DNA of 47,284 nt from Fimicolochytrium jonesii (taxonomy: Eukaryota). Below are positions 3,916 through 47,284 of this stretch, one piece after another. Within the stretch, counting starts at the first letter, position 1. The number at the start of each line of letters is the position of its first letter. The position numbers were made by a program, and so were the translations under genes. A model generated the notes under the pieces. It was not told the DNA's origin and did not search any database. It saw only the letters and a list, made by a program, of their open reading frames with translations. The stretch lies in contig NW_026515669.1 in assembly GCF_025526975.1 (NCBI RefSeq), forward strand, positions 2,108,001 to 2,155,284. Direction: 5' to 3'.

Positions 3916-5532
3916 ATGACACTCTTTCGTTTTCCTATTCTGCTACTTCTCTGCGGGTACTTGCTAGGTGGCGCCGCGGAACCCACCGCAGCGGATATTG
4001 CCGGCGCGGCTTTGGGTAGTCGAAAGGCCGCAGAGCAATATGCGGAAAGGCTCTTGTTCCGTAGCCATCAGGGACATGGCTTTGCCGCCGAACATGTCAA
4101 CAACTTCGTTGAGAACCATATGTCGGACCATACCTCTGCCGTCGTGGGGGGCAACAACGAGAGGAATGGTCCTGATCGTATCAGGACAGGAAGCCAGTTC
4201 CGTGGAGGCGCCCAGCGTGTGCAAGTCAAATACTGGAAGACGGGTCTCCTATCGGTTGTCGACTGCTTTGACCCGAAAACGGGACTCTTCATGTACCTAA
4301 ACGAGGACGGGACGCCTATGGTAATCGAAGTCGCCAAGGACAATTACGAGGCGGCGGTCGCCGCCATGAAGACAAGAATCATGCAAGGCAAGGTGCCTGG
4401 CGTGACCGATGTGGCTGCCGCGGAGAAGCTCAATTCCCGCGGGCATATTACGTATCTTCAAGCCAGAAACATTGCCCGTTTCGGAACCGTGGATGGGCTT
4501 TTCTTCGATGCGCAGACAGGAGCAGTCACATCGCTCGCTTCCGGGGGAATATCGATGTTCCTTACGTTCGCCGGAGATATATGGAAAGGAGAGGATTTCG
4601 ATAAAGCTAGCGGAAATGCCTTCCGCGCCGGAGGGAGGTCACTGAGCACTTCAATCTTCACGCATGTTCTATCCTCGCAAGTGGCTCGCTCTCGCATTGA
4701 ATTACTTCTCCGTCCTATGACGGATTCCGTGGTCAAAAAGCTAGGAGCGGCCACCGCTGCAACCATGGCCAGTACCGTTAGCGGCAAGACCATACACGGG
4801 GCCGCAGCGATGTCTCACATCTCGAAACTCATGAGAGGCACGATCGTTACAAACACCATCTCCACCACTATCATGTCATTGTGGGATGTCAAGCAGTACT
4901 ACAACAGTGAAATCGGCGGCGGGCAAGCAATCAAGAACATTGGAAAAACCGGTACTGGGGTGGCGGCAGGCGGAGCGGGTTGGACCGCCGGAGCTGCTTT
5001 GGGCGCAACCGTTGGGTCAGTCGTTCCTGGCCTCGGAACAGTGGTGGGAAGTGTCGTCGGCGGGGTAGTCGGTTCAGTAGTCAGCGGTCAGCTCGGGTCG
5101 CACGTTGCCGATGTCACCCAAACGAAAGTCTTCCGCATCAAGGACGACAATGCTGTCATGATGGACTACATCCACCAAGTCATTGAAGACTTGGCCAACA
5201 ATTATCTGCTGACGGAGGCGGAATTCGACATCTTGATGGACCATCTGAAGGGTGACATCTTGGAGTCCATCATGTCTGAGATGAAGAAAGCTAGGAAAGT
5301 GACCAAAATGGGAGACACCGCCCTTTCTCAGACCGCCAGACTTCACATCGAGCCTATTTTGGAAAGCATTAGAGAAAAGAATTTGGTCAAACGCTCTCTC
5401 CCAGAATCGGAGCCGGCGGACGGTACGAAAACCGGATTGGTGCTTGAATCCGCCTCGGAGAGAGAAGATTACTACCCCAAAGGTCAGACGGGACGGGCGT
5501 TGGGTGATGCCTTTGAGAATCTGTTCACATGA
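3916..5532 (+). CDS. Signal-peptide protein resembling the bacterial YeeR (CP4-44 inner-membrane protein) family, with glycine-zipper hydrophobic helices
   Basis: Intronless ORF 3853..5532; likely ATG at 3916 (MTLFRFPILLLLCGYLLGGAAE, signal-like). Motifs GHGFAAEHVN, NERNGPDRI, QVKY, PMVIEVAKDNYE, GKVPGVTD, ITYLQARNIARFG recalled from YeeR-type proteins. GxxxG-rich segment GAGWTAGAALGATVGSVVPGLGTVVGSVVGG. Confidence 0.7.
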   Translation: MTLFRFPILLLLCGYLLGGAAEPTAADIAGAALGSRKAAEQYAERLLFRSHQGHGFAAEHVNNFVENHMSDHTSAVVGGNNERNGPDRIRTGSQFRGGAQRVQVKYWKTGLLSVVDCFDPKTGLFMYLNEDGTPMVIEVAKDNYEAAVAAMKTRIMQGKVPGVTDVAAAEKLNSRGHITYLQARNIARFGTVDGLFFDAQTGAVTSLASGGISMFLTFAGDIWKGEDFDKASGNAFRAGGRSLSTSIFTHVLSSQVARSRIELLLRPMTDSVVKKLGAATAATMASTVSGKTIHGAAAMSHISKLMRGTIVTNTISTTIMSLWDVKQYYNSEIGGGQAIKNIGKTGTGVAAGGAGWTAGAALGATVGSVVPGLGTVVGSVVGGVVGSVVSGQLGSHVADVTQTKVFRIKDDNAVMMDYIHQVIEDLANNYLLTEAEFDILMDHLKGDILESIMSEMKKARKVTKMGDTALSQTARLHIEPILESIREKNLVKRSLPESEPADGTKTGLVLESASEREDYYPKGQTGRALGDAFENLFT

Positions 5533-7319: not shown

Positions 7320-8565
7320 TTAGAGCTCGCTATGATTCCACCAACTAAAAGGATTCCATGGCTTCCCAAAGTAATTATCGTAAGTGGATCTCCAAAACCA
7401 AGGCCGAACCCAGGACACCCATCCAAACCCAAAATAGAACATGATTATATCGAAGAGAGCCGTATATACGTCTTCCCTCTTGATCCCAAGTTTCATGCCC
7501 AGTGCTTGACCCAAAAGTATCGCTTCCCGCATGAATGCTGCTCGGTCCAAGTCGGACCCGTTCCATGACCCAAAACCCATGAAATCTTTCAATGCCGAAA
7601 GCCAGATAGGCAGCAGTTTCTCATACTTTTGCATGTCGGTCAGCTTTGGGTCAGCCCGGATCTCATTTGTCTTCTTGACGAATTCAGACGTGTAGGGTTC
7701 GGGCGATTCGATGGATGTCGTCCCTCCAACCCATCGGTTGGCCCGGATACGAGTTGCCATCGATCATCCTTCCGGCAAGGCTAACGTTGTACTGCACTTC
7801 CATCGACTTAACGATCTCTGATCGAGCATTCGCGGCCGTGTGCCACGCTATCGAGTCCTGAAGACTGAATTGTCAACAAACGACGGTTTCAATTGGACAA
7901 TGGCAAGATTGCTCTCGCAGCCTTCCATTACCTCCTTTTGATTGAAAAAAACGATCGCATTCTTCCAGAATTCCTTCCCGAGTGCCTTGGTGTAGCGGTC
8001 CAACCCTTTCTGTAATCCAATGTCAAGCCTGAACGACATGAGATGATGCATCAGTTTCAAAACATCCGTCGGAAGAGACGTCGCCCACTACCCACTTATT
8101 GTTGGTTCCTCGCATCACGAAAATGAATGCGTTCACTCCGTATTGCAGACTCAACATCGTATGGGCAATGTCTGTCATGATTACGCCTTCAGGCATGTCG
8201 GTCGCTTGAACGCCAGGTGTATCGATTAGGCGAAGACATCCTTGTGCAGTTTTGAATACTTCCATCTGCGTCTCGTTCGTACAAGCCTAAATTGCCAGTC
8301 AGGACACAACCTAACATCAGGCCCAATAGGTATGGTCGCCCCTTACCTTCGCCGTATCGCCTTCGGCAAAAACATGGCTTTTCTTCTCCATTGACCAAGT
8401 TGATTTGAGTTCGTAGATCCGGTTCGCGGTGGTGGATTTCCCAACGCCGGTCGATCCGATGAGCATGAGCACTGTGGCATCGACAGTGCCATTATCGCAC
8501 TTTGCCGCGTACACTGTGACGACGTGAAGCGTGTAGAATACCACGATGGAGGACCAGAACTGCAT
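7320..8565 (-). CDS. AIG1/GIMAP-like P-loop GTPase with signal peptide and hydrophobic C-terminus; 4 exons, apparent frameshift near 7700
   Basis: ATG 8565 (MQFWSSIVVFYTLHVVTVYA). G1 LIGSTGVGKSTTAN, G2 ACT, G3 LIDTPG, then AFIFV and ALGKEFWKNAIVFFN. GT-AG introns at 8346-8287, ~8095-8029 and ~7931-7858. The last exon changes frame between RIART and PYTSEFVK. Confidence 0.8.
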
Positions 8566-9349
8566 GGTCGTGATAGTGGCGGCTCTAGAACCTGGGACAC
8601 GCAGCTGCGTACTCAAGGGTGTCTGTTCCTGCAGGACCACGAAGAGACCCGAATCAAGTAGATACTCGATATCCCGCAGATAGAGCCAGACTAACAGTCC
8701 TGCGATTTGCGTTGACGCTTAGCACTGGACGATGCCGTGGGCGGCTTTCCAAAAGGCTCAGGGTCTAGGAAATCCCGACACATGTCTCCTTTTTGTCCGG
8801 AGTCAATAACCAAGGAGGTCCCTGGGATGAAGCGCTATATTATGCGATACACTCCAGATGAACAGGCCACTTTGCCAGCAGCTGAGGAATGGTATCTTCC
8901 TCCGACGTATGAAAGGGGCGCTTTGGTGGCGTAAAAGCATCGGATTTTCATTGTTCGCACGGCGGGAGATGCCCTCATTGTCCGGGGACACAATGAAATT
9001 GAGACAAGAGACATCGCCGGCGTGAACCTTGTTTCCCCGCGAATTCGATGCTTCCATATCCAGCACCCCTGGAGTGCCCCTCGTCTGATGTCATTGACCC
9101 ATCGAATATATCGGATCCACACACATGCCGGTGCGATTTCGAGGCGCGGTGAGTTGCACGGAAAAGGAACCGTTTCGACTCTGAAGGATATAATTGCAAC
9201 TTATGCTGCGGGCTTCAAATAAGCTCGCATTGAGTTCACCACACGCTGGCTTCGATCACCATTGCATCGCGTGGATCGCCAAGCTCGGGGGCAAACATTG
9301 ACCCGCTACAATCCTGTCATCCAACCCTCCTCCACCCGTCACCGCCACT

Positions 9350-10708
9350 ATGCGGTTGTTCAGCTGGGGTCGGTCGTTCCTCGTGTGTTCTGGGTTCCTG
9401 CAGCCGACTAGCGTGCTTGCCGAACAGAATTCAGGCCTATCGAGGATTGTCGTGACCGGCAAGACGGGCGCTGGAGTTAGCTCCACAGCTAACGCGTTGA
9501 TGGGACGCCTTTACGCCAGCGACCAACTCTTCGCCGTTTGCTCCAGTGCGCGTGTAAGTGACTTTCCCGACGACCGTTTGACCCATCCGTATTGCTACAG
9601 CACAGCGCCGACGACTGACTCACGTTTTCTGGACCGCCGCAGTCTTGTACGACAGAGTGCCAAGTAGAGGCGTCAAAGCAGAACCGTCTCGAAATATGGG
9701 ACGTACCAGGGACGAGGAGTACGACCGTCGATTACCATGCCGCAGTTCCCGTGTGCGTCGACAAGGCTGGAGAGGACCAGGTGCATCTTGTCTTGATTGT
9801 GATCCCGGGGACCGATAACTTAAAGTGAGGATATACTTCTGCTTCAGCGCCCGAGCCCGTTCAAAGCATTTAACGCAGGACGAGGAGCTGAATATTCACG
9901 TATCTATCGAAAGGTTCGGTGAAGACCTGCACTTGTCTCTGAAGGCCATGGAGAATGCGTTTGGAAGAGCCATGTGGAGGAATGCAGCTATACTCTTCAA
10001 TTTTCGGGGGAAGAACGTATGTGGTGTCCCTTCCGTCCGCGGAGACGAGCAATGCACGTCGAAGATACTGACGTTCGATCAACCTCTCAGGACACCATTT
10101 GGGCGGCAAAGGAGGCGGGTCGGGCGTCGTTGGTGGAGGAGATTGAGTCCAAATTCAAAGCTACGCTGGAGGGCAGAGTGTTCAAGGAGTCCTTCGTCGA
10201 AGACGGTAGCGAGCGGGATATCGATTGGGCGACAACGGCTATCGAACTTTCTCGGAGTTTGTCCCCTTTCTCCATCCGACCGGAAAAGATCCGACCGGAA
10301 AAGATAGATGATTCGAAACGTTCGTCGTTGCGGGATATTCTCGACCATGCAGCTGCTTGTATAACGGACTACGGGCATAGCTTCGCTGAGAAGTTCACCA
10401 AGCGAAATCCACAGCCAGACGACGGTAATGGTGGACAAGCAACCGGCGAGAAAGCAGCCGACGGAAATCAACATGGTATTTGGGGCATGATGGAGGCACC
10501 GCAGTGGGCTTGGGAAATGATAATTCAGAACTCGCAGCTCCCTGAGTGGGTGAAAGATGTTCTGCTCGGCAACGACACGCTCCTTCACAAGGCAGTCCTA
10601 GCCTTCATCGCAATTCCGTTGTTGTTCCTCATAATTCAGGTCTATGTCGGGTCGTTCATATCCCTTATAGCCTTCCTACAGAGGTTGCGCAGGTTAGCAG
10701 GGTTTTGA
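9350..10708 (+). CDS. AIG1/GIMAP-like GTPase paralogue with signal peptide, degenerate Walker A and C-terminal TM helix; 4 exons
   Basis: IVVTGKTGAGVSSTANALMG, SCTTECQ, IWDVPG, AFGRAMWRNAAILFN. Introns 9554-9642 (GTAAGT), 9825-~9913 (GTGAGG) and 10017-10090 (GTATGT), at the same positions as in the minus-strand paralogue. TM segment AVLAFIAIPLLFLIIQVYVGSFISLIAFL. Confidence 0.8.
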
Positions 10709-12652: not shown

Positions 12653-12877
12653 ATGCCTGCCTCACGATACGACTACATTGCAACTTATGACCTCCACGGC
12701 GTAAGCAAGAGGTTCCAGGCTTCTAGCTTGCGATCTCTCGCACAGCTGCTCAAGATCAGTAGGTCCACCGCTATGCTTCTTGCTGACGGCGGTAAGTATA
12801 CAGGTAAGATGCCTATCAGGATAGAGAAGATGAGAAAAGGTGTTGTCGCTGATGGAAATGTTGTTATGCGTGAGTGA
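12653..12877 (+). CDS. Small NUMOD1-like helix-turn-helix protein (family 2, copy a)
   Basis: RYDYIATY...FQASSLRSLAQLLKISRSTAMLL...IRIEK; paralogue of 35958..36242. Confidence 0.6.
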   Translation: MPASRYDYIATYDLHGVSKRFQASSLRSLAQLLKISRSTAMLLADGGKYTGKMPIRIEKMRKGVVADGNVVMRE

Positions 12878-13260: not shown

Positions 13261-13582
13261 GAAAAGTACCATTTGAGAATACCAGATCTTGCACTGCCTG
13301 GTATCTTGGTCTGGTAACTTCGCCGCGCGAAAACATCGAAAACGACTGTCGGAAATCGATTGCGGGGATCAGCTGGTAAATCTGGTATCTTCGGAACACC
13401 TTTCCGTTCTCAAGAAGTGACAGTGAAAAATTAAAAAAACTTTCCTCCTTTCAAATCTTCAGGTCAAAATCTTGAAATGAAAGTACCAAGTTACCAGATG
13501 CTCCACCCCACTCGACGAATTTGGCACTTTCGTGTGCCGAAGTTACCAGCAAATATACCAGCCATCTGGTAATCTGGTAAGT
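13261..13582. repeat. Origin-like module copy 1: 12 TACCA(G)/CTGGTA boxes in dyad symmetry around an AT-rich core
   Basis: Forward boxes at ~13267, 13280, 13484, 13492, 13544, 13556; reverse boxes at ~13298, 13311, 13373, 13382, 13566, 13574; AT-rich stretch ~13420-13480. Confidence 0.85.
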
Positions 13583-14021
13583 TTGGTTCCCAGGTACATT
13601 TCTGACAAACTAGTGCTGGCCAACACTCACGGCGGGGATTGATGGTAAGAAATAGCCAGAATCAATCGAGACCCTGCGTCAAAGTGGCCGGAACCCTCAG
13701 CATCCATGGGGGTCTGCCGAGCAACTTGATCTCCCGGCAAGCAACACCACCTCGCACAATGGATGAGGCAGCGGAGGCAGGGAGATGTCCAGGAATTCAA
13801 CGTACCGAAGCATTTCACCTCTCTACCTTCTACGCATGCACCCTGGTGAACTAGGGGGTCCCGCTTGCGTTTGAGAAGCTTAAAAGTTGACGCGACCTAT
13901 CATTGCTTTTAGCGCCACGGACGAAGTGGCGCTTGACTCAATGCCAAGCAAGCTCGCCAGACGCCGTGCCCGAAAGCCTGGGGCGTGCGGAGGACTACTT
14001 TAACATCGTTAATGGAATGGA

Positions 14022-14342
14022 GAAAGTACCAGATGTGCATACCAGAACCCCGACAGCCCTGGTATCTTATCCGGTATCTGCTCCGCGCGAAAACATCGAA
14101 AACGAGTCGAGAATATCGATTGCGCTACATCATCTGGTAACTTGGTAACTTCCAAAGCCATTTCTGTCACAGGAAAAGAAAGTGAGAAACAACAATCTCT
14201 TCTAATGGAATAATTCTCCAGATCAAAATCTTGATATGAAGTTACCAGATTACCAGATGCTATACGGCACTCGACTTTTCTGAAGCCTTCGTGTGCCGAA
14301 ACTACCAGCAAAGATACCAGCCGTCTGGTAATCTGGTAACTT
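14022..14342. repeat. Origin-like module copy 2 (diverged direct repeat of 13261..13582) directly upstream of the primase-helicase
   Basis: Same 12 boxes in the same order and nearly the same spacing. Shared blocks ccgcgcgaaaacatcgaaaacga, atcgattgcg, tcaaaatcttga, ttcgtgtgccgaa and tctggtaatctggtaa. Confidence 0.85.
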
Positions 14343-17300
14343 CGCCTCTGCGGTTTGGATGTGGAGCAGGGCAAGGGGATCGCATACAGGACATGGGCAA
14401 CTCGAGAAAGCAAACGCGTTTGAAACTCGAGAATAAAAAACGTTGCCCAAAGTTAGGCAATGAGGACGAGAATAAGATTGCGATGACAACTGACGCATAC
14501 AAAAGCTTGGTCAGGCAGTTGCGCATGGACAAGAGCTCCCAAGCACATCAGACGCACTTCAACTTCCCGGGCTTCACTGGAATATTTGCAAGGTTGAGCG
14601 TGCCCTCTGAAAAGGAGCGCAGGGATCTCTACGACATACTCTTCGCTGTGATTCAGCAGGCAGGTGACGACATTCGGGCGAGCCCATGCGTTCTGTGTGA
14701 ACGCATACCACAAGATGGTCGATTTCGACTGTTCTTCGATTGGGATGTGAAGCTTCACGAAGTCGGAACCGATGACGATATTTTGCTGACCAACCAAACC
14801 GTCGTGCAGGGAATCAGGGACGAACTTGTTGCATCCTACGGTGCCGATTATGGAGATACGCCTCTTCTGGTCTCTGTTGGCTGCGCCCAGAAAATTCATG
14901 TCAACTGTCCCGGCATTGTCGTGACGAAAGAAGTTGCGGTCTTCCTATGTGAGCGTTTGCGGGTACGACTGATCACAAAGGCATGTCTTGCAGTGGACAA
15001 AGCAGATAAGTGTCTCGACACTTCGGTCTACAATGGTCAGGGCCTCCGCCTGCTTGGATGTCACAAGGGAAGCAGCTTGAAAGGCGCCGATGTTGAGCCA
15101 TACGAAGCGCGATTCGGCGCTGGATCCTTCCGGTACGCTTATACCCCCGTGGACAGTGTTTCACTTGAGCGGCGCGCGATTCGGAGAGAGGATCTAGACG
15201 ACTACAGCATCATTCCACAGCCTCATGCAACAGTGACCTTGCTTTGTGACGAGGCTGATGGAGACCTTCAATCGCGTAGAACTGCGAAAGTCCCCCGACA
15301 AGCATTGAAGAGGGGAGTTTCAGCCGAGGAGAGCGACATGACAGTCGATTGCAACAGCAACACAGAGGTGTTTTCAGGACCGGAGTACAGCGCGGTGCTA
15401 GGGAAAGCGACCAGCTTTTTCTCCTCCCAGTACGGGCTGACGGAGCAGTTTCACTCGATCATTGTACAAAGGGCCAAGAAAGCTCTCATTTTCAGTACGA
15501 AGAGCCGCAGGTGCTACATCAAAGGCGATACCCACGGGAGCAACAATCCCTACATCGTCATCTCCAGCTATGGGTGTCGCTTCAAGTGTCCAAGCTTTGA
15601 ATGCAGTAAGGTGCCTACCCGGAGTATCCCTCTCTGCGATCTGCCGGAAGAGCTTTCGGAAGCGTACACGAAGGTCTTCCATGTGGAATCTTCAGACAAG
15701 GGAAGGAAGGCGTTTGCGTCTGGAGTTCGCGCCCTGGCAAAAACGCTCCCGAGTATGAACTTGAAGTTCAAGCCCGCAGAGGTTCGCAAAAGTGGAGTTG
15801 GCTGGGTGTGCGTGCTGCAGGAGAACACTCACTGTCCCAGTCATCAAAAGGAGCACGACCGTCCTGAGAACTATCTCATCGCGAATTCTAACGGGTGCTT
15901 TGTCGGCTGCAGGCAAGATCCTGCGCTGTTCTTTCCGTCCGGTGCTTCTGGTCTACAGCTGCCAAGCAGTGTGACCAACGTGCTCTTCCAGTATGTAGAC
16001 AAGCGCACCTTCATTGTTGACAGCGGGACTTTAGCGGGCAACACCCCATTCATAGACGAGATCAAAGACGAGACACAGCATTTCGAGGACGCGGAGGCCA
16101 ACCGGCTGTTCAAGAGTACATTTCGAGGAACGCACTCGGCGTACGCAAAGTACCTGTACCACTCTAAAGGCGCTCTCTTTATCTGCAATCGGGAAAGACA
16201 AGCTGCTTGGCACGTGTTCAACTGCCACCGCTGGAAGTATGACCCGGGCGCGGCATACCTAATGCGCTACCTCTCGTCCGATGAGAACCTCGAACCGTAC
16301 CTCAGAGCGCGCAAGCTCTACAGTCAGGGCGACGAGGTCTCATGGAAGATTGCGTTCAACATCGACAAGCTCATTACGAGCTTCCAAAACCATGGGAGCC
16401 AGCGGGGTTTTGTTGACGAATGTGCGTTGTTTTTCAACGAACGCAGCGATGAGCTCGAACGGAACCTGGATGGGAACCGGTATCTGATCGGTTTTGCCAA
16501 TGGGGTCTTTGACTTGAGGGAGCGCATGTTTCGAAAAGGGGAGCCGAACGACTATGTCAGCATGACTGTGCATTACGAGTACGGTGAGCCAATCGAAGAA
16601 GACGTCGGCGACGTGCTCGCCTTTATCAGCAAGATTCTTCCCGATGATGCGGTTCGCCACTACGTACTCAAGCTCCTGGGATCTTGTGTTTCTGGGGATA
16701 CTCGCGACGAAAAGTTCCATGTGTGGATCGGAGGCGGAGCGAACGGCAAGAGTACGCTGCTCTCGCTTGTCGCTGCGGCTCTGGGTCAGTACGCAGCTTC
16801 GATGAAGGCCACGATGTTGACCCAAAAGTCACCTCCCGCTGACAACGCAACTCCAGGAATGAACAAAGCAGTTGGGGCACGTATGGTTGCCATGCAGGAA
16901 ACAAACTCTGGCGAAAGCGTCAACGAATCGCTTCTGAAGAGCTCACTGGGTGGTGACAAGATAGACTACCGCCCATTGTTCAAAGAGGCGCGAGAGTTCT
17001 ATCCTCATTTCAAGATGATCCTCTGCACGAACAACCCCTTGACCATAAAAGGGACGGACCACGGAATCTGGCGGAAGATCCGAATGGTTCCTTTTGAAAG
17101 CCAGTTTGTGGCCAAGATTGGCAGGATAGCCCACAAGGAAGGAAACGCATCAGTTGAGCCCATCGAACACTTGATTCAAGATGCCCAAGGAGATGCTGTG
17201 TTTGAGATGGACAAGAGCGTTAAAGACAAGATCGACGGGCCTTGGAAAGTCGCTTTCATGCACATGCTTATACGATATTATTACGTGTGGCAGGAGGAGG

Positions 17301-17611
17301 GGCTTGACGAGGTCCCGGACAAAATCGCTCAATACAATCGGGACTACAAGGAATCACAAGATATGGTTGGGAAGTTCCTAGAAGAAAAGTGTCAAATCGG
17401 TGCAGAGTACAAGGTGCACAGCAAGCCGCTATGGGAAGCTTTCTTCGACTGGCAGAAGACTGAAGCCCACCAGATCCGTCAACACGACTTCAGCCAGAAG
17501 CTCAAGCGAGATTCAAGGTTCACCTACTCCAAAGGGGTTGATATTAACGGGAAGAACAGTTGTGGTTACGCTGGGCTTCAGGTAATTGGAACTGCGGCAG
17601 CGTGTATGTGA
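14291..17611 (+). CDS. AEP primase (NCLDV/herpes/PrimPol type) - Zn fingers - D5-like SF3 helicase - C-terminal winged helix fusion
   Basis: 1106-aa intronless ORF; likely ATG 14393 or 14483. AEP motifs FRLFFDWDVK, KIHVNCPG and LDTSVY..GLRLLGCHK. Two Cys/His clusters: CYIKGDTHGSN..CRFKC..C and CPSHQKEHDR..CFVGC. D5_N LIGFANGVFDL..FRKGEPNDYVSM. Walker A GGGANGKS, Walker B VAMQE, motif C LCTN, DHGIWRKIRMVPF. C-terminus FLEEKC..LWEAFFDW..FSQKLK..GYAGLQ. Confidence 0.95.
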   Translation: MCRNYQQRYQPSGNLVTSPLRFGCGAGQGDRIQDMGNSRKQTRLKLENKKRCPKLGNEDENKIAMTTDAYKSLVRQLRMDKSSQAHQTHFNFPGFTGIFARLSVPSEKERRDLYDILFAVIQQAGDDIRASPCVLCERIPQDGRFRLFFDWDVKLHEVGTDDDILLTNQTVVQGIRDELVASYGADYGDTPLLVSVGCAQKIHVNCPGIVVTKEVAVFLCERLRVRLITKACLAVDKADKCLDTSVYNGQGLRLLGCHKGSSLKGADVEPYEARFGAGSFRYAYTPVDSVSLERRAIRREDLDDYSIIPQPHATVTLLCDEADGDLQSRRTAKVPRQALKRGVSAEESDMTVDCNSNTEVFSGPEYSAVLGKATSFFSSQYGLTEQFHSIIVQRAKKALIFSTKSRRCYIKGDTHGSNNPYIVISSYGCRFKCPSFECSKVPTRSIPLCDLPEELSEAYTKVFHVESSDKGRKAFASGVRALAKTLPSMNLKFKPAEVRKSGVGWVCVLQENTHCPSHQKEHDRPENYLIANSNGCFVGCRQDPALFFPSGASGLQLPSSVTNVLFQYVDKRTFIVDSGTLAGNTPFIDEIKDETQHFEDAEANRLFKSTFRGTHSAYAKYLYHSKGALFICNRERQAAWHVFNCHRWKYDPGAAYLMRYLSSDENLEPYLRARKLYSQGDEVSWKIAFNIDKLITSFQNHGSQRGFVDECALFFNERSDELERNLDGNRYLIGFANGVFDLRERMFRKGEPNDYVSMTVHYEYGEPIEEDVGDVLAFISKILPDDAVRHYVLKLLGSCVSGDTRDEKFHVWIGGGANGKSTLLSLVAAALGQYAASMKATMLTQKSPPADNATPGMNKAVGARMVAMQETNSGESVNESLLKSSLGGDKIDYRPLFKEAREFYPHFKMILCTNNPLTIKGTDHGIWRKIRMVPFESQFVAKIGRIAHKEGNASVEPIEHLIQDAQGDAVFEMDKSVKDKIDGPWKVAFMHMLIRYYYVWQEEGLDEVPDKIAQYNRDYKESQDMVGKFLEEKCQIGAEYKVHSKPLWEAFFDWQKTEAHQIRQHDFSQKLKRDSRFTYSKGVDINGKNSCGYAGLQVIGTAAACM

Positions 17612-32883: not shown

Positions 32884-32904
32884 GGGTTAGGGTTAGGGTT
32901 GGGG
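32884..32904 (+). repeat. Interstitial telomere-repeat relic
   Basis: gggttagggttagggttgggg in the same orientation as the terminal array. Confidence 0.75.
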
Positions 32905-37754: not shown

Positions 37755-37813
37755 AGGTCTAAGGGCGTAAGGGTTAGGGTTAGGAACAGGGTTAGTGAAC
37801 GCGTAGGGGTTAA
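37755..37813 (+). repeat. Degenerate interstitial telomere-repeat relic
   Basis: taagggcgtaagggttagggttaggaacagggttagtgaacgcgtaggggttaa. Confidence 0.65.
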
Positions 37814-39690: not shown

Positions 39691-39722
<32 letters not shown>

Positions 39723-40014
39723 GGTTAGGGTTAGGGTTAGGGTTAGGGTTAGGGTTAGGGTTAGGGTTAGGGTTAGGGTTAGGGTTAGGGTTAGGGTTAG
39801 GGTTAGGGTTAGGGTTAGGGTTAGGGTTAGGGTTAGGGTTAGGGTTAGGGTTAGGGTTAGGGTTAGGGTTAGGGTTAGGGTTAGGGTTAGGGTTAGGGTT
39901 AGGGTTAGGGTTAGGGTTAGGGTTAGGGTTAGGGTTAGGGTTAGGGTTAGGGTTAGGGTTAGGGTTAGGGTTAGGGTTAGGGTTAGGGTTAGGGTTAGGG
40001 TTAGGGTTAGGGTT
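39691..40014 (+). repeat. Telomeric (TTAGGG)n array 1 (proximal)
   Basis: About 54 near-perfect units. Confidence 0.99.
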
Positions 40015-41799
40015 ACAAGACCCCCTGGGTTGGGTTTTATTTTTGGGTTGCCTGGAACCCTAGGGACTTAGAAATTTTCGGGTTTTTTGGCTTTTGGGTG
40101 TGTTCTACAGTTCAAATTCTTGACTCTGAGGGGTGTGGTGGCGGGGGGTGTTGCGCACCTAGGCAAGTCAGGGGGGACTAGGTGTGCAAGGGCAAGTGAT
40201 GGGTCATATGGGTGGTGGTGCGGGTACGGGGGGGGGGGGGGCAGGGGTGCCAATAGGGGAGGGGGGGGGGTTGATATAAAGGGGAAATATATGTTATATA
40301 TACGTTTTAGGACTTGTGCAAATTGGGATTTTTTAGTGCCGATCCGGAGTTGGCGTCCTAATTAAAAGTTGGCCCCATATCATATTCTCTAATTGAAGTA
40401 CTCTCGGATTGGCAATCCGTGCAGAAACGGCTTCAGAAACTTAGAAAAACGAAATTTTCACGCGACGGGGGGTAAAAAGTTGGAAAATGTGGTGATATCT
40501 CAACATCTGGCTGACTATCCAGTGGAGGGCACTTAATGAAAGTTGATTGTAGCCTATGGTTTGCATAGCTGATGTGGTAGCAAATCTTGTGTAACCTTGC
40601 TTTTGGCTGAAGAACAGGGCCCCTTTTCAATTCTCAAGTAGTGACCCCCAAGACCTCCTAACAAAAGACACGAGTACGTATGTGCAGGCAAAGGGGTTTG
40701 GCTGTGTTCTCCAGTAAACATTTTGTGATTCCGCTGTGCATCGTAGACTGTTTGTAGGACCGTTGCGGAATGTCATTTACCAAAACTGTTGAACATTTTC
40801 CGTTTAAAGCAGTGTTCTACAGTTTGTCCATGCAGGTTAGAGCACGTGACCTGGGCTTGCTTGCAGGGTATGCAGAGTGAGAGGGTTGGGGTTAGAGATT
40901 TCCCAGATCACTTATTAAATTCAGCCAAACTGTCTCTGTCATGGAACATTTAAAATGGTGGAAAGTAGTATTGCATTTATTGATTTAGAGTACATTGGAA
41001 AAGCGCACATTCAGAAAAGGGTTTTGGTGTAAAGTTATCAACGACATTCAACAGTACTAAAGGACTTCCGCAAGCATGTCACGGACTTGGTTCTGTCCAA
41101 AAGTCGTACGGCACTCAGGGTACCTGGCGCAGCGGAGACGGAAACGATGCTGACCGCCAATGCTATGAAAAGCTGAGCCTCCACAGTTGGGACATTGAAG
41201 CTGATCACGATGCTGATGGAAGAGTTCACAGATATTGCCAATGGGAGCAGCATCAGGCACTTCCCCATCCCCATGACCCCACCAAGCACGAGCAGGATCA
41301 ATGACGGGTGCAATGCCTTTGAACCATCCGGGATTGAAACCAAAAGAGTTGAGAACATCTCGGAAGCGCTGACAGTCTGTCACAGTAGTCTGTCTATTGC
41401 GATCTCCTCTGAATAGAACTCTGGTGGCAGCGTCCATGATGCCATTGATGAGACTGTAGTACTCTTCCACCGGCACAAGCTTCAAGGAGTTTGCGCCCAT
41501 GTGCTGGAAAATGGTCTCGATCTGGTCCAAATGGAGATTCAAAACCATCTGTTCTGCTGATTCCAACCTGGCGCACTGAACTCGCACTTCAACTCGCATG
41601 CCAGTAATGTGGAGCGGGTGACCGTTGAGCCATTGACGTAAACCTCTCAGTGTCTCACTGCGATCACCAAGGCTGGACTTGGTTTGGGGCATTCGCGAAG
41701 ACAAAGTCGAAGAGTAGGCTTTGAGCGCATGAACAAGCTTTGGGTAGCAAGTAACCCGAACATTGGCGTGACCCGCAATGTCAAAGCGGGTGGACCCAA
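40015..41799 (-). mobile_element. Telomere-inserted element A, copy 1 (5'-truncated retroelement-like)
   Basis: Starts GGGTT|ACAAGACCCCCTGGG; flanked by TTAGGG arrays; near-identical to 42284..44040, 44937..45509 and 46076..46651. Confidence 0.85.
41057..41799 (-). CDS. Element A ORF with C-terminal C4 Zn-ribbon; open up to the telomere junction (5'-truncated)
   Basis: QLQCPNCGGSAFHSIGGQHRFRLRCARYPECRTTF. The frame has no stop from 41799 to 41057. AATAAA on the minus strand at ~40976-40981. Confidence 0.7.
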
Positions 41800-42283
41800 G
41801 GGTTAGGGTTAGGGTTAGGGTTAGGGTTAGGGTTAGGGTTAGGGTTAGGGTTAGGGTTAGGGTTAGGGTTAGGGTTAGGGTTAGGGTTAGGGTTAGGGTT
41901 AGGGTTAGGGTTAGGGTTAGGGTTAGGGTTAGGGTTAGGGTTAGGGTTAGGGTTAGGGTTAGGGTTAGGGTTAGGGTTAGGGTTAGGGTTAGGGTTAGGG
42001 TTAGGGTTAGGGTTAGGGTTAGGGTTAGGGTTAGGGTTAGGGTTAGGGTTAGGTTAGGGTTAGGGTTAGGGTTAGGGTTAGGGTTAGGGTTAGGGTTAGG
42101 GTTAGGGTTAGGGTTAGGGTTAGGGTTAGGGTTAGGGTTAGGGTTAGGGTTAGGGTTAGGGTTAGGGTTAGGGTTAGGGTTAGGGTTAGGGTTAGGGTTA
42201 GGGTTAGGGTTAGGGTTAGGGTTAGGGTTAGGGTTAGGGTTAGGGTTAGGGTTAGGGTTAGGGTTAGGGTTAGGGTTAGGGTT
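41800..42283 (+). repeat. Telomeric array 2
   Basis: About 80 TTAGGG units, one TTAGG variant. Confidence 0.99.
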
Positions 42284-44040
42284 ACAAGACCCCCTGGGTT
42301 GGGTTTTATTATTGGGTTGCCTGGAACCCTAGGGACTTAGAAATTTTCGAGTTTTCTGGCTTTTGGGTGTGTTCTACAGTTCGAATTCTTGACTCTGAGG
42401 GATGTAGTGGTGGGGGGGTGTTGCGCACCTAGGCAAGTCGGGGAGGACTAGGTGTGCAAGGGCAAGTGATGGGTCATATGGGTGGTGGTGCGGGTACGGG
42501 GGGGGGCAGGGGTGCCAATAGGGGGGGGGGGGGGTTGATATAAAGGGGACATATATGTTATATATACGTTATAGGACTTGTGCAAATTGGGATTCTTATA
42601 GTGCCGATCCGGAGTTGGCGTCCTAATTGAAAAGTTGGACCCATATCATATTCTCTAATTGAAGTACTCTCGGATTGGCAATCCGTGCGGAAACGGCTTC
42701 AGAAACTTAGAAAAACGAAATTTTCACGCGACGGGGGGTAAAAAGTTGGAAAATGTGGTGATATCTCAACATCTGGCTGACTATCCAGTGTAGGGCACTT
42801 AATGAAAGTTGATTGTAGCCTATGGTTTGCATGGCTGATGTGGTAGCAAATCTTGTGTAACCTTGCTTTTGGCTGAAGAACAGGGCCCCTTTTCAATTCT
42901 CAAGTAGTGACCCCCAAGACCTCCTAACAAAAGACACGAGTACGTATGTGCAGGCAAAGGGGTTTGGCTGTGTTCTCCAGTAAACATTTTGTGATTCCGC
43001 TGTGCATCGTAGACTGTTTGTAGGACCCTTGCGGAATGTTATTTACCAAAACTGTTGAACATTTTCCGGTTAAAGCAGTGTTCTACAGTTTGTCCATGCA
43101 GGTGAGAGCACGTGACCTGGGCTTGCTTGCAGGGTACGCAGAGTGAGAGGGTTAGGGTTAGAGATTTCCCAGATCACTTATTAAATTCAGCCAAACTGTC
43201 TCTGTCATGGAACATTTAAAATGGTGGGAAGTAGTATTGCATTTATTGATTTAGAGTACATTGGAAAAGCGCACATTCAGAAAAGGGTTTTGGTGTAACG
43301 TTATCAACGGCATTCAACAGTACTAAAGGACTTCCGCAAGCATGTCACGGACTTGGTTCTGTCCAAAAGTCGTACGGCACTCAGGGTACCTGGCGCAGCG
43401 GAGACGGAAACGATGCTGACCGCCAATGCTATGAAAAGCTGAGCCTCCACAGTTGGGACATTGAAGCTGATCACGATGCTGATGGAAGAGTTCACGGATA
43501 TTGCCAATGGGAGCAGCATCAGGCACTTCCCCATCCCCATGACCCCACCAAGCACGAGCAGGATCAATGACGGGTGCAATGCCTTTGAACCATCCGGGGT
43601 TGAAACCAAAAGAGTTGAGAACATCTCGGAAGCGCTGACAGTCTGTCACAGTAGTCTGTCTATTGCGATCTCCTCTGAATAGAACTCTGGTGGCAGCGTC
43701 CATGATGCCATTGATGAGACTGTAGTACTCTTCCACCGGCACAAGCTTCAAGGAGTTTGCGCCCATGTGCTGGAAAATGGTCTCGATCTGGTCCAAATGG
43801 AGATTCAAAACCATCTGTTCCGCTGATTCCAACCTGGCGCACTGAACTCGCACTTCAACTCGCATGCCAGTAATGTGGAGCGGGTGGACTTGGTTTGGGG
43901 CATTCGCGAAGACAAAGTCGAAGAGTAGGCTTTGAGCGCATGAACAAGCTTTGGGTAGCAAGTAACCCGAACATTGGCGTGACCCGCAATGTCAAAGCGG
44001 GTGGACCCAAATCCCTCACCAAGGATGGTGAGCATGGGAA
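42284..44040 (-). mobile_element. Element A, copy 2 (extends ~30 nt further 5' but carries a 55-nt internal deletion)
   Basis: Same proximal junction as copy 1. Lacks accgttgagc...caccaaggctg (41621-41675 in copy 1). Extra sequence atccctcaccaaggatggtgagcatgggaa at the distal end. Confidence 0.85.
43323..44035 (-). pseudogene. Element A ORF, frameshifted by the 55-nt deletion
   Basis: ATG 44035 (MLTILGEGFGSTRFDIAG...). Restoring 55 nt gives 768 nt, i.e. 255 aa in frame with the Zn-ribbon C-terminus. Confidence 0.7.
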
Positions 44041-44105
44041 GGGTTAGGGTTAGGGTTAGGGTTAGGGTTAGGGTTAGGGTTAGGGTTAGGGTTAGGGTTA
44101 GGGTT
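44041..44105 (+). repeat. Telomeric array 3
   Basis: About 11 TTAGGG units. Confidence 0.98.
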
Positions 44106-44884
44106 ACAGGACTGTTCCCGGTTATGGGTTATTTTTGGCCATCCAAAAAGTGTCAAATAAAGTTGCTAGCAATGTTCAGGGGCATCTTACTGTAATGTGC
44201 TTCAAATCTTGGGGCATGTTTTCCACTCAATGCCCCGGGAAAATCTGTTTTTCCGATTTTTTACTATGAAAATATTGCCAAAATGCATTTTCTGAAACTC
44301 TGAGTGGATGGATTTCGCTTAAAGTGAGATATGTCTCAGAAAACATCCCCAAAAACATCTAGGAACCTTCATCTACTCTAGTATTCATCAACTCCTGGCA
44401 CTTTTTGTTTCCAGGCAATATGGGGGTGTTCTCCAGTTGGCGGCGAATGACTCATTTTTGCTATGATCTCGGGGACGGAGGCGGAAGCGAAGTAGAGAAG
44501 ACAGGGCGAGAGTGATAGGCGACAAGAGATTTTATTGGCAAAACAAGAAACAAGGACTAGAACAGGAGATGAGAAGAACTGGTGTTGATCTGCTGGGGAG
44601 GAAGGGAACGGACAAAGAGAGGCCGGCTATTTATAGATAGGCAACCCAGCAGATCAGAGAACTACAACAACAAGAGGGGACTGGGGGGGCATCAGCTATG
44701 CTCCTAGAGCGTGCGTGGCGAGCGTAGAGAGCATTGCTACAGCTGCTGGCTATGGGGAAGTAGTGGGGGGTGTGGAGAAGCCGAGGGGGGGATTGGCGAA
44801 ATGAGAGGAGAGAGGAGGAGTGGCGATATTGCAAGAGGATTGGCAAAATGAGAGGAGAGAGGGGGAGTGGCATTGACATTGACA
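44106..44884 (-). mobile_element. Telomere-inserted element B, copy 1 (longest)
   Basis: Starts GGGTT|ACAGGACTGTTCCC; its proximal part is repeated at 45546..45799 and 46688..46918. Strand is inferred from the truncation polarity. Confidence 0.8.
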
Positions 44885-44936
44885 GGGTAGGGTTAGGGTT
44901 AGGGTTAGGGTTAGGGTTAGGGTTAGGGTTAGGGTT
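44885..44936 (+). repeat. Telomeric array 4
   Basis: gggtaggg followed by about 8 TTAGGG units. Confidence 0.97.
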
Positions 44937-45509
44937 ACAAGACCCCCTGGGTTGGGTTTTATTATTGGGTTGCCTGGAACCCTAGGGACTTAGAAATTTT
45001 CGAGTTTTCTGGCTTTTGGGTGTGTTCTACAGTTCGAATTTTTGACTCTGAGGGAGGTAGTGGCGGGGGGTATTGCGCACCTAGGCAAGTCGGGGAGGAC
45101 TAGGTGTGCAAGGGCAAGTGATGGGTCATATGGGCGGTGGTGCGGGTACGGGGGGGGGGGGTTGATATAAAGGGGACATATATGTTATATATACGTTATA
45201 GGACTTGTGCAAATTGGGATTTTTCTAGTGCCGATCCGGAGTTGGCGTCCTAATTGAAAAGTTGGCCCCATATCATATTCTCTAATTGAAGTACTCTCGG
45301 ATTGGCAATCCGTGCGGAAACGGCTTCAGAAACTTAGAAAAACGAAATTTTCACGCGACGGGGGGTAAAAAGTTGGAAAATGTGGTGATATCTCAACATC
45401 TGGCTGACTATCCAGTGTAGGGCACTTAATGAAAGTTGATTGTAGCCTATGGTTTGCATAGCTGATGTGGTAGCAAATCTTGTGTAACCTTGCTTTTGGC
45501 TGAAGAACA
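44937..45509 (-). mobile_element. Element A, copy 3 (3'-terminal ~570 bp only)
   Basis: Same proximal junction; truncated at ctgaagaacaggg. Confidence 0.85.
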
Positions 45510-45545
45510 GGGTTAGGGTTAGGGGTTAGGGTTAGGGTTAGGGTT
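45510..45545 (+). repeat. Telomeric array 5 (contains a TTAGGGG variant)
   Basis: gggttagggttaggggttagggttagggttagggtt. Confidence 0.95.
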
Positions 45546-45799
45546 ACAGGACTGTTCCCGGTTATGGGTTATTTTTGGCCATCCAAAAAGTGTCAAATAA
45601 AGTTGCTAGCAATGTTCAGGGGCATCTTACTGTAATGTGCTTCAAATCTTGGGGCATGTTTTCCACTCAATGCCCCGGGAAAATCTGTTTTTCCGATTTT
45701 TTACTATGAAAATATTGCCAAAATGCATTTTCTGAAACTCTGAGTGGATGGATTTCGCTTAAAGTGAGATATGTCTCAGAAAACATCCCCAAAAACATC
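45546..45799 (-). mobile_element. Element B, copy 2 (~254 bp)
   Basis: Matches 44106..44359; truncated at aaaaacatct. Confidence 0.85.
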
Positions 45800-46075
45800 T
45801 TAGGGTTAGGGTTAGGTTAGGGTTAGGGTTAGGGTTAGGGTTAGGGTTAGGGTTAGGGTTAGGGTTAGGGTTAGGGTTAGGGTTAGGGTTAGGGTTAGGG
45901 TTAGGGTTAGGGTTAGGGTTAGGGTTAGGGTTAGGGTTAGGGTTAGGGTTAGGGTTAGGGTTAGGGTTAGGGTTAGGGTTAGGGTTAGGGTTAGGGTTAG
46001 GGTTAGGGTTAGGGTTAGGGTTAGGGTTAGGGTTAGGTTAGGGTTAGGGTTAGGGTTAGGGTTAGGGTTAGGGTT
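45800..46075 (+). repeat. Telomeric array 6
   Basis: About 46 units with two TTAGG variants. Confidence 0.98.
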
Positions 46076-46651
46076 ACAAGACCCCCTGGGTTGGGTTTTA
46101 TTATTGGGTTGCCTGGAACCCTAGGGACTTAGAAATTTTCGAGTTTTCTGGCTTTTGGGTGTGTTCTACAGTTCGAATTTTTGACTCTGAGGGAGGTAGT
46201 GGCGGGGGGTATTGCGCACCTAGGCAAGTCGGGGAGGACTAGGTGTGCAAGGGCAAGTGATGGGTCATATGGGCGGTGGGTGCGGGGGTACGGGGGGGGG
46301 GGGGTTGATATAAAGGGGACATATATGTTATATATACGTTATAGGACTTGTGCAAATTGGGATTTTTCTAGTGCCGATCCGGAGTTGGCGTCCTAATTGA
46401 AAAGTTGGCCCCATATCATATTCTCTAATTGAAGTACTCTCGGATTGGCAATCCGTGCGGAAACGGCTTCAGAAACTTAGAAAAACGAAATTTTCACGCG
46501 ACGGGGGGTAAAAGTTGGAAAATGTGGTGATATCTCAACATCTGGCTGACTATCCAGTGTAGGGCACTTAATGAAAGTTGATTGTAGCCTATGGTTTGCA
46601 TAGCTGATGTGGTAGCAAATCTTGTGTAACCTTGCTTTTGGCTGAAGAACA
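46076..46651 (-). mobile_element. Element A, copy 4 (same truncation as copy 3)
   Basis: Near-identical to 44937..45509. Confidence 0.85.
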
Positions 46652-46687
46652 GGGTTAGGGTTAGGGGTTAGGGTTAGGGTTAGGGTT
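46652..46687 (+). repeat. Telomeric array 7 (identical to array 5)
   Basis: Same length and same TTAGGGG variant as 45510..45545. Confidence 0.95.
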
Positions 46688-46918
46688 ACAGGACTGTTCC
46701 CGGTTATGGGTTATTTTTGGCCATCCAAAAAGTGTCAAATAAAGTTGCTAGCAATGTTCAGGGGCATCTTACTGTAATGTGCTTCAAATCTTGGGGCATG
46801 TTTTCCACTCAATGCCCCGGGAAAATCTGTTTTTCCGATTTTTTACTATGAAAATATTGCCAAAATGCATTTTCTGAAACTCTGAGTGGATGGATTTCGC
46901 TTAAAGTGAGATATGTCT
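46688..46918 (-). mobile_element. Element B, copy 3 (~231 bp)
   Basis: Truncated at gagatatgtct. Confidence 0.85.
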
Positions 46919-47284
46919 GGGTTAGGGTTAGGGTTTAGGGGTTAGGGTTAGGGTTAGGGTTAGGGTTAGGGTTAGGGTTAGGGTTAGGGTTAGGGTTAGG
47001 GTTAGGGTTAGGGTTAGGGTTAGGGTTAGGGTTAGGGTTAGGGTTAGGGTTAGGGTTAGGGTTAGGGTTAGGGTTAGGGTTAGGGTTAGGGTTAGGGTTA
47101 GGGTTAGGGTTAGGGTTAGGGTTAGGGTTAGGGTTAGGGTTAGGGTTAGGGTTAGGGTTAGGGTTAGGGTTAGGGTTAGGGTTAGGGTTAGGGTTAGGGT
47201 TAGGGTTAGGGTTAGGGTTAGGGTTAGGGTTAGGGGGTTAGGGTTAGGGTTAGGGTTAGGGTTAGGGTTAGGGTTAGGGTTAGG
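46919..47284 (+). repeat. Terminal telomere (TTAGGG)n
   Basis: The G-rich strand runs 5'->3' to the end of the window; about 60 units. Confidence 0.99.

Follow-up and report, generated by a model that had tools for sequence, protein, structure and literature searches.

A putative captured replication cassette, with duplicated origin-like modules and an intact primase-helicase gene, near a chromosome end of the chytrid Fimicolochytrium jonesii

The DNA analysed here is a stretch of 47,284 nucleotides from Fimicolochytrium jonesii (NCBI RefSeq assembly GCF_025526975.1, contig NW_026515669.1, positions 2,108,001 to 2,155,284 of the forward strand), hereafter called the window. It contains a putative replication cassette consisting of a gene encoding a primase-helicase, two origin-like modules and a small gene resembling those of helix-turn-helix (HTH) proteins (Table 1). 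The primase-helicase gene lies in an intronless open reading frame (ORF) of 1072 open codons on the plus strand (14393-17611); the annotated protein and all of its homologues start at the ATG at 14483, which gives a predicted protein of 1042 amino acids. The window terminates in a TTAGGG telomere repeat, the end of a eukaryotic contig.

Table 1 Position of the cassette and of the telomere-proximal repeats in the window
Feature	Position	Strand	Description
Small HTH-like ORF	12653..12877	+	74 amino acids; HTH/NUMOD1-like by weak leads; 3' of the primase gene in Geranomyces, upstream of the modules here
Origin-like module 1	13263..13583		12 TACCA(G) boxes, orientations ++----++++--, spacings 13,19,13,62,9,101,8,52,12,11,8
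AT-rich core of module 1	13388..13483		66 % AT; predicted unwinding element
Spacer between modules	13584..14022		Unique; no family recognised
Origin-like module 2	14023..14342		11 exact boxes and one with a single mismatch; repeats module 1 in direct orientation; its end is about 140 nt short of the conserved start codon
AT-rich core of module 2	14148..14242		66 % AT
Primase-helicase gene	14483..17611	+	Intact, intronless; 1042 amino acids; AEP, two Cys/His clusters, D5_N, SF3 ATPase, winged helix
C-terminal winged helix	17363..17590	+	RFX type, about residues 961-1036; predicted box reader
Telomere-proximal repeats	39691..47284	+	TTAGGG tracts alternating with repeated units, telomere repeat at the window end; context

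The predicted protein matches the Pfam families D5_N (E 6e-10) and DUF5906, the superfamily 3 (SF3) ATPase (E 4e-8), and, below the family cut-off, AEP_C962R (E 0.003). The catalytic triad of the archaeo-eukaryotic primase (AEP) domain is complete (D86, D88, D179), and the ATPase has the Walker A lysine (K756), the Walker B glutamate (E806), the sensor asparagine (N850) and the pair R864-K865. Conservation along the protein is highest in the ATPase core, at 83-95 % in the Walker A/B windows. The two Cys/His clusters may bind zinc. An AlphaFold2 model, built from an alignment of 76 sequences, had a mean predicted local distance difference test score (pLDDT) of 89; its best full-length structural match was C962R of African swine fever virus (ASFV; E 4e-31), and D5 proteins of giant viruses were matched as well. 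When the last 99 amino acids were folded alone, the predicted structure resembled RFX5 (Z 10.0, root-mean-square deviation (rmsd) 2.6 Å over 81 residues), the DNA-binding domain of RFX1 (RFX1-DBD, Z 8.3) and the origin-binding domain of phage P4 (PDB 1ka8; Z 6.6, rmsd 3.3 Å over 74 residues). A preliminary description of the locus, made without database searches, had read the gene as an intact, intronless AEP-zinc finger-D5/SF3 helicase-winged helix gene. The ORF, the Pfam matches, the catalytic residues and the D5/C962R-like model with its RFX/P4-type tail agree with that reading, except that the zinc finger is recognised from sequence only and that a lysine stands at the arginine finger.

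The two modules, about 320 bp each and 75 % identical over 327 nt, lie directly upstream of the gene and are iteron-rich and AT-centred, as had been described. Exact TACCA boxes number 12 in module 1 and 11 in module 2, compared with at most five per 350 nt in 200 dinucleotide shuffles. Bases within the boxes are nearly invariant between the modules (59 of 60 identical), compared with 72 % identity (141/197) at the other positions. The AT content of the core over 95 nt (Table 1) rises to a peak of 74 % in 50 nt, in a region of approximately 48 %. No third module was found in the window, nor any module 3' of the primase-helicase gene. Very probably, the module is an origin of the class used by self-loading helicases.

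A homologue with 47 % identity is encoded on a gene-dense metagenome contig of 22.9 kb which also carries a tRNA (L001). There, a module of 12 TTTACCA boxes begins about 70 nt past the stop codon of the homologue. Read in reverse, its spacings (12,20,12,64,8,99,8,64,12,10,8) are within 1-2 nt of those of the window at 10 of the 11 intervals, and 10 of the 12 box orientations are equal. The tail of the L001 protein is 41 % identical to the tail of the window protein, the wing being the conserved part, in step with the TACCA core common to both modules. Directly past its first module L001 also has another set of mirror-symmetric repeats, with four copies of AAAAGGGCCTAAAGGGCC (13365-13515), and at 14197-14667 a tRNA-Glu is found in tandem with three degenerate tRNA-like copies.

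A third locus was recognised through a gene model of Geranomyces, P0114, which has extensions at both ends. The four best tblastn matches of the N-terminal extension all fall in the window modules (E 0.001-0.11), once reversed and once forward, the forward match standing 57 codons ahead of the start, compared with 62 codons in the window. The C-terminal extension is 67 % identical over 75 amino acids (E 3e-28) to the unannotated ORF at 12653. The P0114 extensions look like the translated flanking DNA of a mis-called gene model. If so, the order is module-module-primase-HTH in P0114 and HTH-module-module-primase in the window, a circular permutation. Module and gene co-occur at three independent loci. 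Homologues were expected to have an upstream module of their own; Geranomyces has one, according to the gene model, whereas L001 has its module downstream of the gene. The 74-amino-acid ORF had no Pfam or PHROG match and a word search returned no homologue; its nearest Atlas clusters were unnamed viral proteins (scores 0.89-0.90), while NUMOD clusters scored 0.81-0.84.

A set of 2.9 million viral contigs from IMG/VR was searched for the core motif, taken as two pairs of boxes separated by 82-108 nt. With the pairs in the same orientation as in the modules, 12 of 24 matches immediately followed, on the 3' side, a primase/helicase gene (VapE, NrS-1, Cch or Toprim-AAA), and a further match was 5' of such a gene (39 of the 47 nearby ORFs were scanned, overlapping frames being left out). 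In the opposite orientation, 26 of 55 matches directly adjoined a gene for a primase or helicase-initiator on its 3' side, 34 of the matches having a 3'-adjacent ORF of at least 250 amino acids to scan. Together the scans gave 38 of 79 matches, at 25 distinct loci, whereas no more than about 2.9 would be expected were every contig to have a gene of this kind; this positional upper bound is the only null for the motif scans. Since the opposite orientation, meant as a negative control, marks helicase genes too, no orientation specificity is shown. The four-box palindrome pattern had no match in IMG/VR. The proposed pairing of an origin with its cognate initiator is well supported by comparison, both by the modules beside the homologues in L001 and Geranomyces and by the motif beside phage primase-helicase genes. 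The TACCA-pair signature follows unrelated phage helicase families, VapE, Cch/DUF927, NrS-1, Toprim-AAA_25 and D5 (loci L082-L105 and L141-L195). Eight large ORFs adjoining the signature had no Pfam match (e.g. L159, L163, L167, L170, L177 and L185) and may be unrecognised initiators.

Close relatives of the protein were seen only in the Powellomycetaceae and in metagenome contigs. Intact homologues, 71 % identical, are present in Geranomyces variabilis and G. michiganensis; the copy in Thoreauomyces is split into two adjacent gene models, and Powellomyces, a further G. variabilis strain and a second contig of F. jonesii yielded fragments. The cassette family thus spans four genera of the Powellomycetaceae in intact and broken copies, and copies have been both born and lost within the family. 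In F. jonesii a distant second paralogue (P0006), apparently on the same contig as the primase-helicase gene, has an AEP domain 53-73 % identical to that of the window protein and a helicase which is only about 25 % identical, an architecture which is that of a domain swap, as judged by the sequences. The inventory of the preliminary description, which had the modules and the primase-helicase right, missed this paralogue as well as the small HTH-like gene. G. variabilis likewise has a distant paralogue, three locus tags from P0003, a protein identical to the core of P0114 and encoded on a 317-kb contig. Two distant members of a primase-helicase family of about 1000 amino acids (P0129 and P0143) are apparently encoded on one contig of 321,979 bp, which echoes the chytrid paralogue pair. 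Scans of IMG/VR with the window protein, the close alignment A2 or P0143 gave no relatives, and a pattern scan of 185,579 prokaryote genomes found no clade members. In a tree of 79 helicase cores (FastTree, 432 columns, midpoint root, no named mycodnavirus D5 included) the chytrid copies formed a group (support 1.0) with two metagenomic proteins, one of them that of L001. The D5 phylogeny proposed earlier resolves a clade, not a donor.

The closest functional likeness is to the pathogenicity islands of Staphylococcus aureus (SaPIs). As described in the accessible text of PMC9371898, SaPI Reps are self-loading SF3 hexamers, the origin lies just downstream of rep and consists of 6-12 penta- or hexanucleotide iterons on the two sides of an AT-rich centre, and the C-terminal winged helix of the Rep reads the iterons. 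SaPI5 PriRep and the window protein have in common a fused primase and SF3 helicase with a C-terminal winged helix, and both origins have about 12 short iterons around an AT-rich centre, in opposed pairs, over 320-370 bp (a likeness of description; PMC9371898). Unlike the SaPI origin, the one in the window is duplicated, lies 5' of its gene and is in a eukaryotic nuclear chromosome; the downstream position is found in L001. The window also differs in having no integrase among its 97 ORFs and no packaging genes, in the lysine at the arginine finger, and in that iteron binding by the winged helix is here a prediction. By analogy the cassette would work like SaPI PriRep and its origin, without being a member of that family.

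By sequence and structure the best match over the full length is ASFV C962R, or D5 of NCLDV (nucleocytoplasmic large DNA viruses; PDB 8iqi), with the common order AEP-D5_N-SF3-tail. The C962R tail is likened in PMC10516667, in the text accessible, to RFX1 and to the origin-binding domain of P4. Identity to C962R is about 15 % in the structural alignment, and the two Cys/His clusters stand where C962R has PriCT-2. The AEP triad, D5_N, Walker A/B and the sensor asparagine of the D5/C962R-like superfamily are all found in the window protein, and K865 takes the place of the arginine finger. Unlike the window gene, most canonical NCLDV D5 genes had no iteron origin found beside them. P4 alpha (PDB 1ka8) and pRN1 ORF904 (PMC2777425, in part) also have a winged helix after the SF3 helicase, but those replicons are prokaryotic. 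Relics of Mycodnaviridae and other giant viruses, which encode D5, occur in zoosporic fungi, the same host group, including, as reported for F. jonesii, a solitary giant-virus capsid gene on a contig resembling those of the host (PMC13533422); no capsid or PolB was recognised among the 97 ORFs of the window, and in the accessible text of that paper neither a D5 nor an origin nor a subtelomeric cassette is named for this chytrid family. For the end modules of polinton-like viruses, the primase-helicase has been proposed to use adjoining repeats as origin, and distant helicase matches in chytrid fungi are mentioned (PMC11296320, in the portion accessible). The window, in contrast, has no terminal inverted repeats, integrase/recombinase or capsid of the polinton or polinton-like virus type. 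No description of this cassette was found in the literature searched, and what is new here is the nuclear, conserved, duplicated and upstream form of the origin.

On balance, the sequence evidence leads us to regard the locus as probably a replication cassette captured from a large DNA virus or a virus-like element and lying near a chromosome end in the Powellomycetaceae. It would comprise two predicted origin copies, an intact primase-helicase predicted to recognise them, and the small HTH-like gene. By analogy with SaPI PriRep, the winged-helix tails, whose fold is a predicted one, would bind the TACCA(G) boxes flanking the AT-rich core; two hexamers would then load, the core would melt, the SF3 motor would unwind the DNA and the AEP domain would prime synthesis. 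Bulk synthesis would need a polymerase of the host or of a helper virus, because no polymerase is present in the window. The capture from a putative viral donor may have favoured an origin-centred fragment, which was then duplicated: origin-centred fragments are enriched in defective genomes of baculoviruses (PMC13148896, accessible part), and enrichment of this kind is a plausible route to a duplicated origin. In agreement with the preliminary description, no capsid, PolB, packaging ATPase or integrase was recognised among the 97 stop-to-stop ORFs of at least 95 amino acids in positions 1-39600 of the window (Pfam E≤0.01).

Several observations weigh against this interpretation. Both modules sit 5' of the gene, whereas in SaPI, in L001 and in 12 of the 13 primase-adjacent viral matches of the same-orientation scan the origin is 3'. 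Among canonical giant-virus D5 genes, none of 79, and three of 35 in a second set, had at least six mirrored hexamers downstream, as counted by a detector which needs exact hexamers with at least two G/C and can miss AT-rich or degenerate iterons. Because the module is scarce beside canonical D5 genes, the donor would not be an ordinary described giant virus, and the origin would be a trait of particular lineages. The L001 module is a geometric match only: a DNA profile of the window modules misses it, and local alignment scores between the two are modest (44-56, compared with shuffle maxima of 33-38). Since no viral hallmark gene was recognised in the 22.9 kb of L001, its viral nature is something we infer. 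For the Geranomyces flanks the source is a single mis-called protein model and not DNA. The window showed neither a terminal repeat nor a target duplication; nine scattered 11-mers were present, about three being expected, and none were paired as ends. GC, GC at third codon positions (GC3) and CpG of the primase-helicase gene are like those of neighbouring genes, without CpG loss, so its composition gives no sign of recent arrival. A lysine (K865) replaces the second arginine of the arginine-finger pair in all six clade members, the other 73 of the 79 aligned cores having arginine, and this second arginine is the true finger in pRN1 ORF904 (PMC2777425, accessible text); a motor with a lysine finger may be weak. 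A structural study of mpox E5 (PMC12137749, accessible text) did not find an origin-binding role for the winged helix.

An alternative which we regard as possible, though not probable, is a circular replicon of approximately 5-6 kb, a plasmid or virus satellite with the order primase-HTH-origin-origin, which integrated opened at different points in each host and may persist as an episome. The circular permutation between the window and P0114 would be accounted for, and in the circular form the origins would take their usual place 3' of the gene. Between the two G. variabilis copies there is a 10 % difference, whereas one of the pair matches the G. michiganensis copy at 95-100 %; of 26 informative sites in a quartet test, 14 separate the two G. 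variabilis copies and 8 unite them. However, clustering of the discordant sites was not significant (p 0.09), and the species names may hide cryptic lineages. The permutation, which depends on one gene model, is explained equally by a tandem array or local rearrangement; moreover, the first module is inverted in P0114 and direct in the window, the missing terminal repeat or target duplication counts here as well, and the position of P0003 near its paralogue on a 317-kb contig suggests a larger unit. Given the same tentative standing is the more specific idea of an undescribed circular nuclear replicon of chytrids which lacks capsid, polymerase and integrase, is self-loading in the manner of phage satellites, has a lysine finger, undergoes recombination with a sister replicon, passes from genus to genus and becomes caught in chromosomes, the break points differing. 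The self-contained selfish element or plasmid-like unit of the preliminary description is a possible reading, for which no termini were found in the window.

It is distinctly unlikely that the motor is crippled or domesticated and that the upstream boxes are the autoregulatory operator of a retained primase or DNA-binding gene instead of an origin. The upstream position at the same distance in two genera, the arginine to lysine change and the host-like composition would fit such an operator. However, L001, whose module is on the 3' side, has the same lysine, no part of the protein is more conserved than the ATPase core, both modules have retained the length and the AT richness of their core, and broken copies occur in two genera, unlike what would be seen for an essential host gene.

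Yeast Y' and telomere-linked helicase repeats are multi-copy at chromosome ends and abut the telomere repeats. The preliminary description had suggested, as one possibility, that the locus is a domesticated subtelomere amplification system of this kind or like telomere-linked RecQ helicases. The contig is indeed telomere-ended, with TTAGGG tracts, and the gene is 30 kb from its end; the subtelomeric position is qualified by the first long TTAGGG tract (39691) lying 22 kb from the gene. The 90 % cluster of the protein has one member on one contig, the other F. jonesii copy of the same type in the protein collection is a fragment of 138 amino acids, and the telomere-proximal repeat at 40-44 kb is a different sequence without an origin-like module. 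With one intact copy in the protein collection, 22 kb from the telomere tracts, and no third module in the window, an amplifier of the Y' type is therefore very improbable. That the boxes are sites of a host RFX transcription factor, in an enhancer unrelated to replication, is hardly credible: the RFX monomer site GTTRCY (PMC10530576, in part, according to which a related chytrid expresses RFX) occurs three and four times in modules 1 and 2, overlapping seven boxes, but it is absent from the L001 module, X-box palindromes (GTNRCC N0-3 RGYAAC) are absent from both modules, the invariant core is TACCA, and the element's own tail has the predicted RFX fold.

If the locus is a captured cassette, it would offer a small, culturable test case for a sequence-specific iteron origin of a eukaryotic-virus-type D5 primase-helicase. 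An origin of SaPI-like type that sits in a fungal chromosome together with an intact initiator could fire without need of host licensing; were it active, chytrids would have a nuclear replicon of a new kind, which might also serve as the backbone of a vector. The resemblance of the box core to an RFX half-site, together with the RFX fold predicted for the tail, bears on the origin of RFX-type DNA recognition.

Other features were noted elsewhere in the window, where an exact look-up in the protein collection gave no match for 7 of 10 ORFs. In the telomere-proximal region (39691-47284) a repeated unit of about 2.1-2.3 kb alternates with the telomere tracts and bears a minus-strand ORF with a weak zinc-ribbon match (41057-41692 and 43323-43865); a second, shorter unit of 1.1-1.4 kb is also repeated among the tracts. 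These repeats look like a telomere-inserting or telomere-amplified element. Short interstitial TTAGGG relics at 32884-32900 and 37767-37800 are possibly former chromosome ends. Diverged small intronless genes occur as pairs or a triplet (22950-23564/35020-35400; 39147-39512/35534-35755; 12653/3129/35958; 811-1398/19252-20073; 21327-21724/38094-38489; 24499-25004/25644-26039). They are of T5orf172, DUF7307-like, HTH-like, F-box-like and unknown types, several of them broken, and may be scattered virus-like accessory genes. An intronless ORF of 538 amino acids (3916-5532) starts like a signal peptide and has a hydrophobic stretch, rich in Gly, which matches phage tail profiles, probably by composition, and divergent remnants of AIG1-like GTPase genes in several frames (7320-8718 on the minus strand and 9302-10708 on the plus strand) are probably intron-containing host genes.

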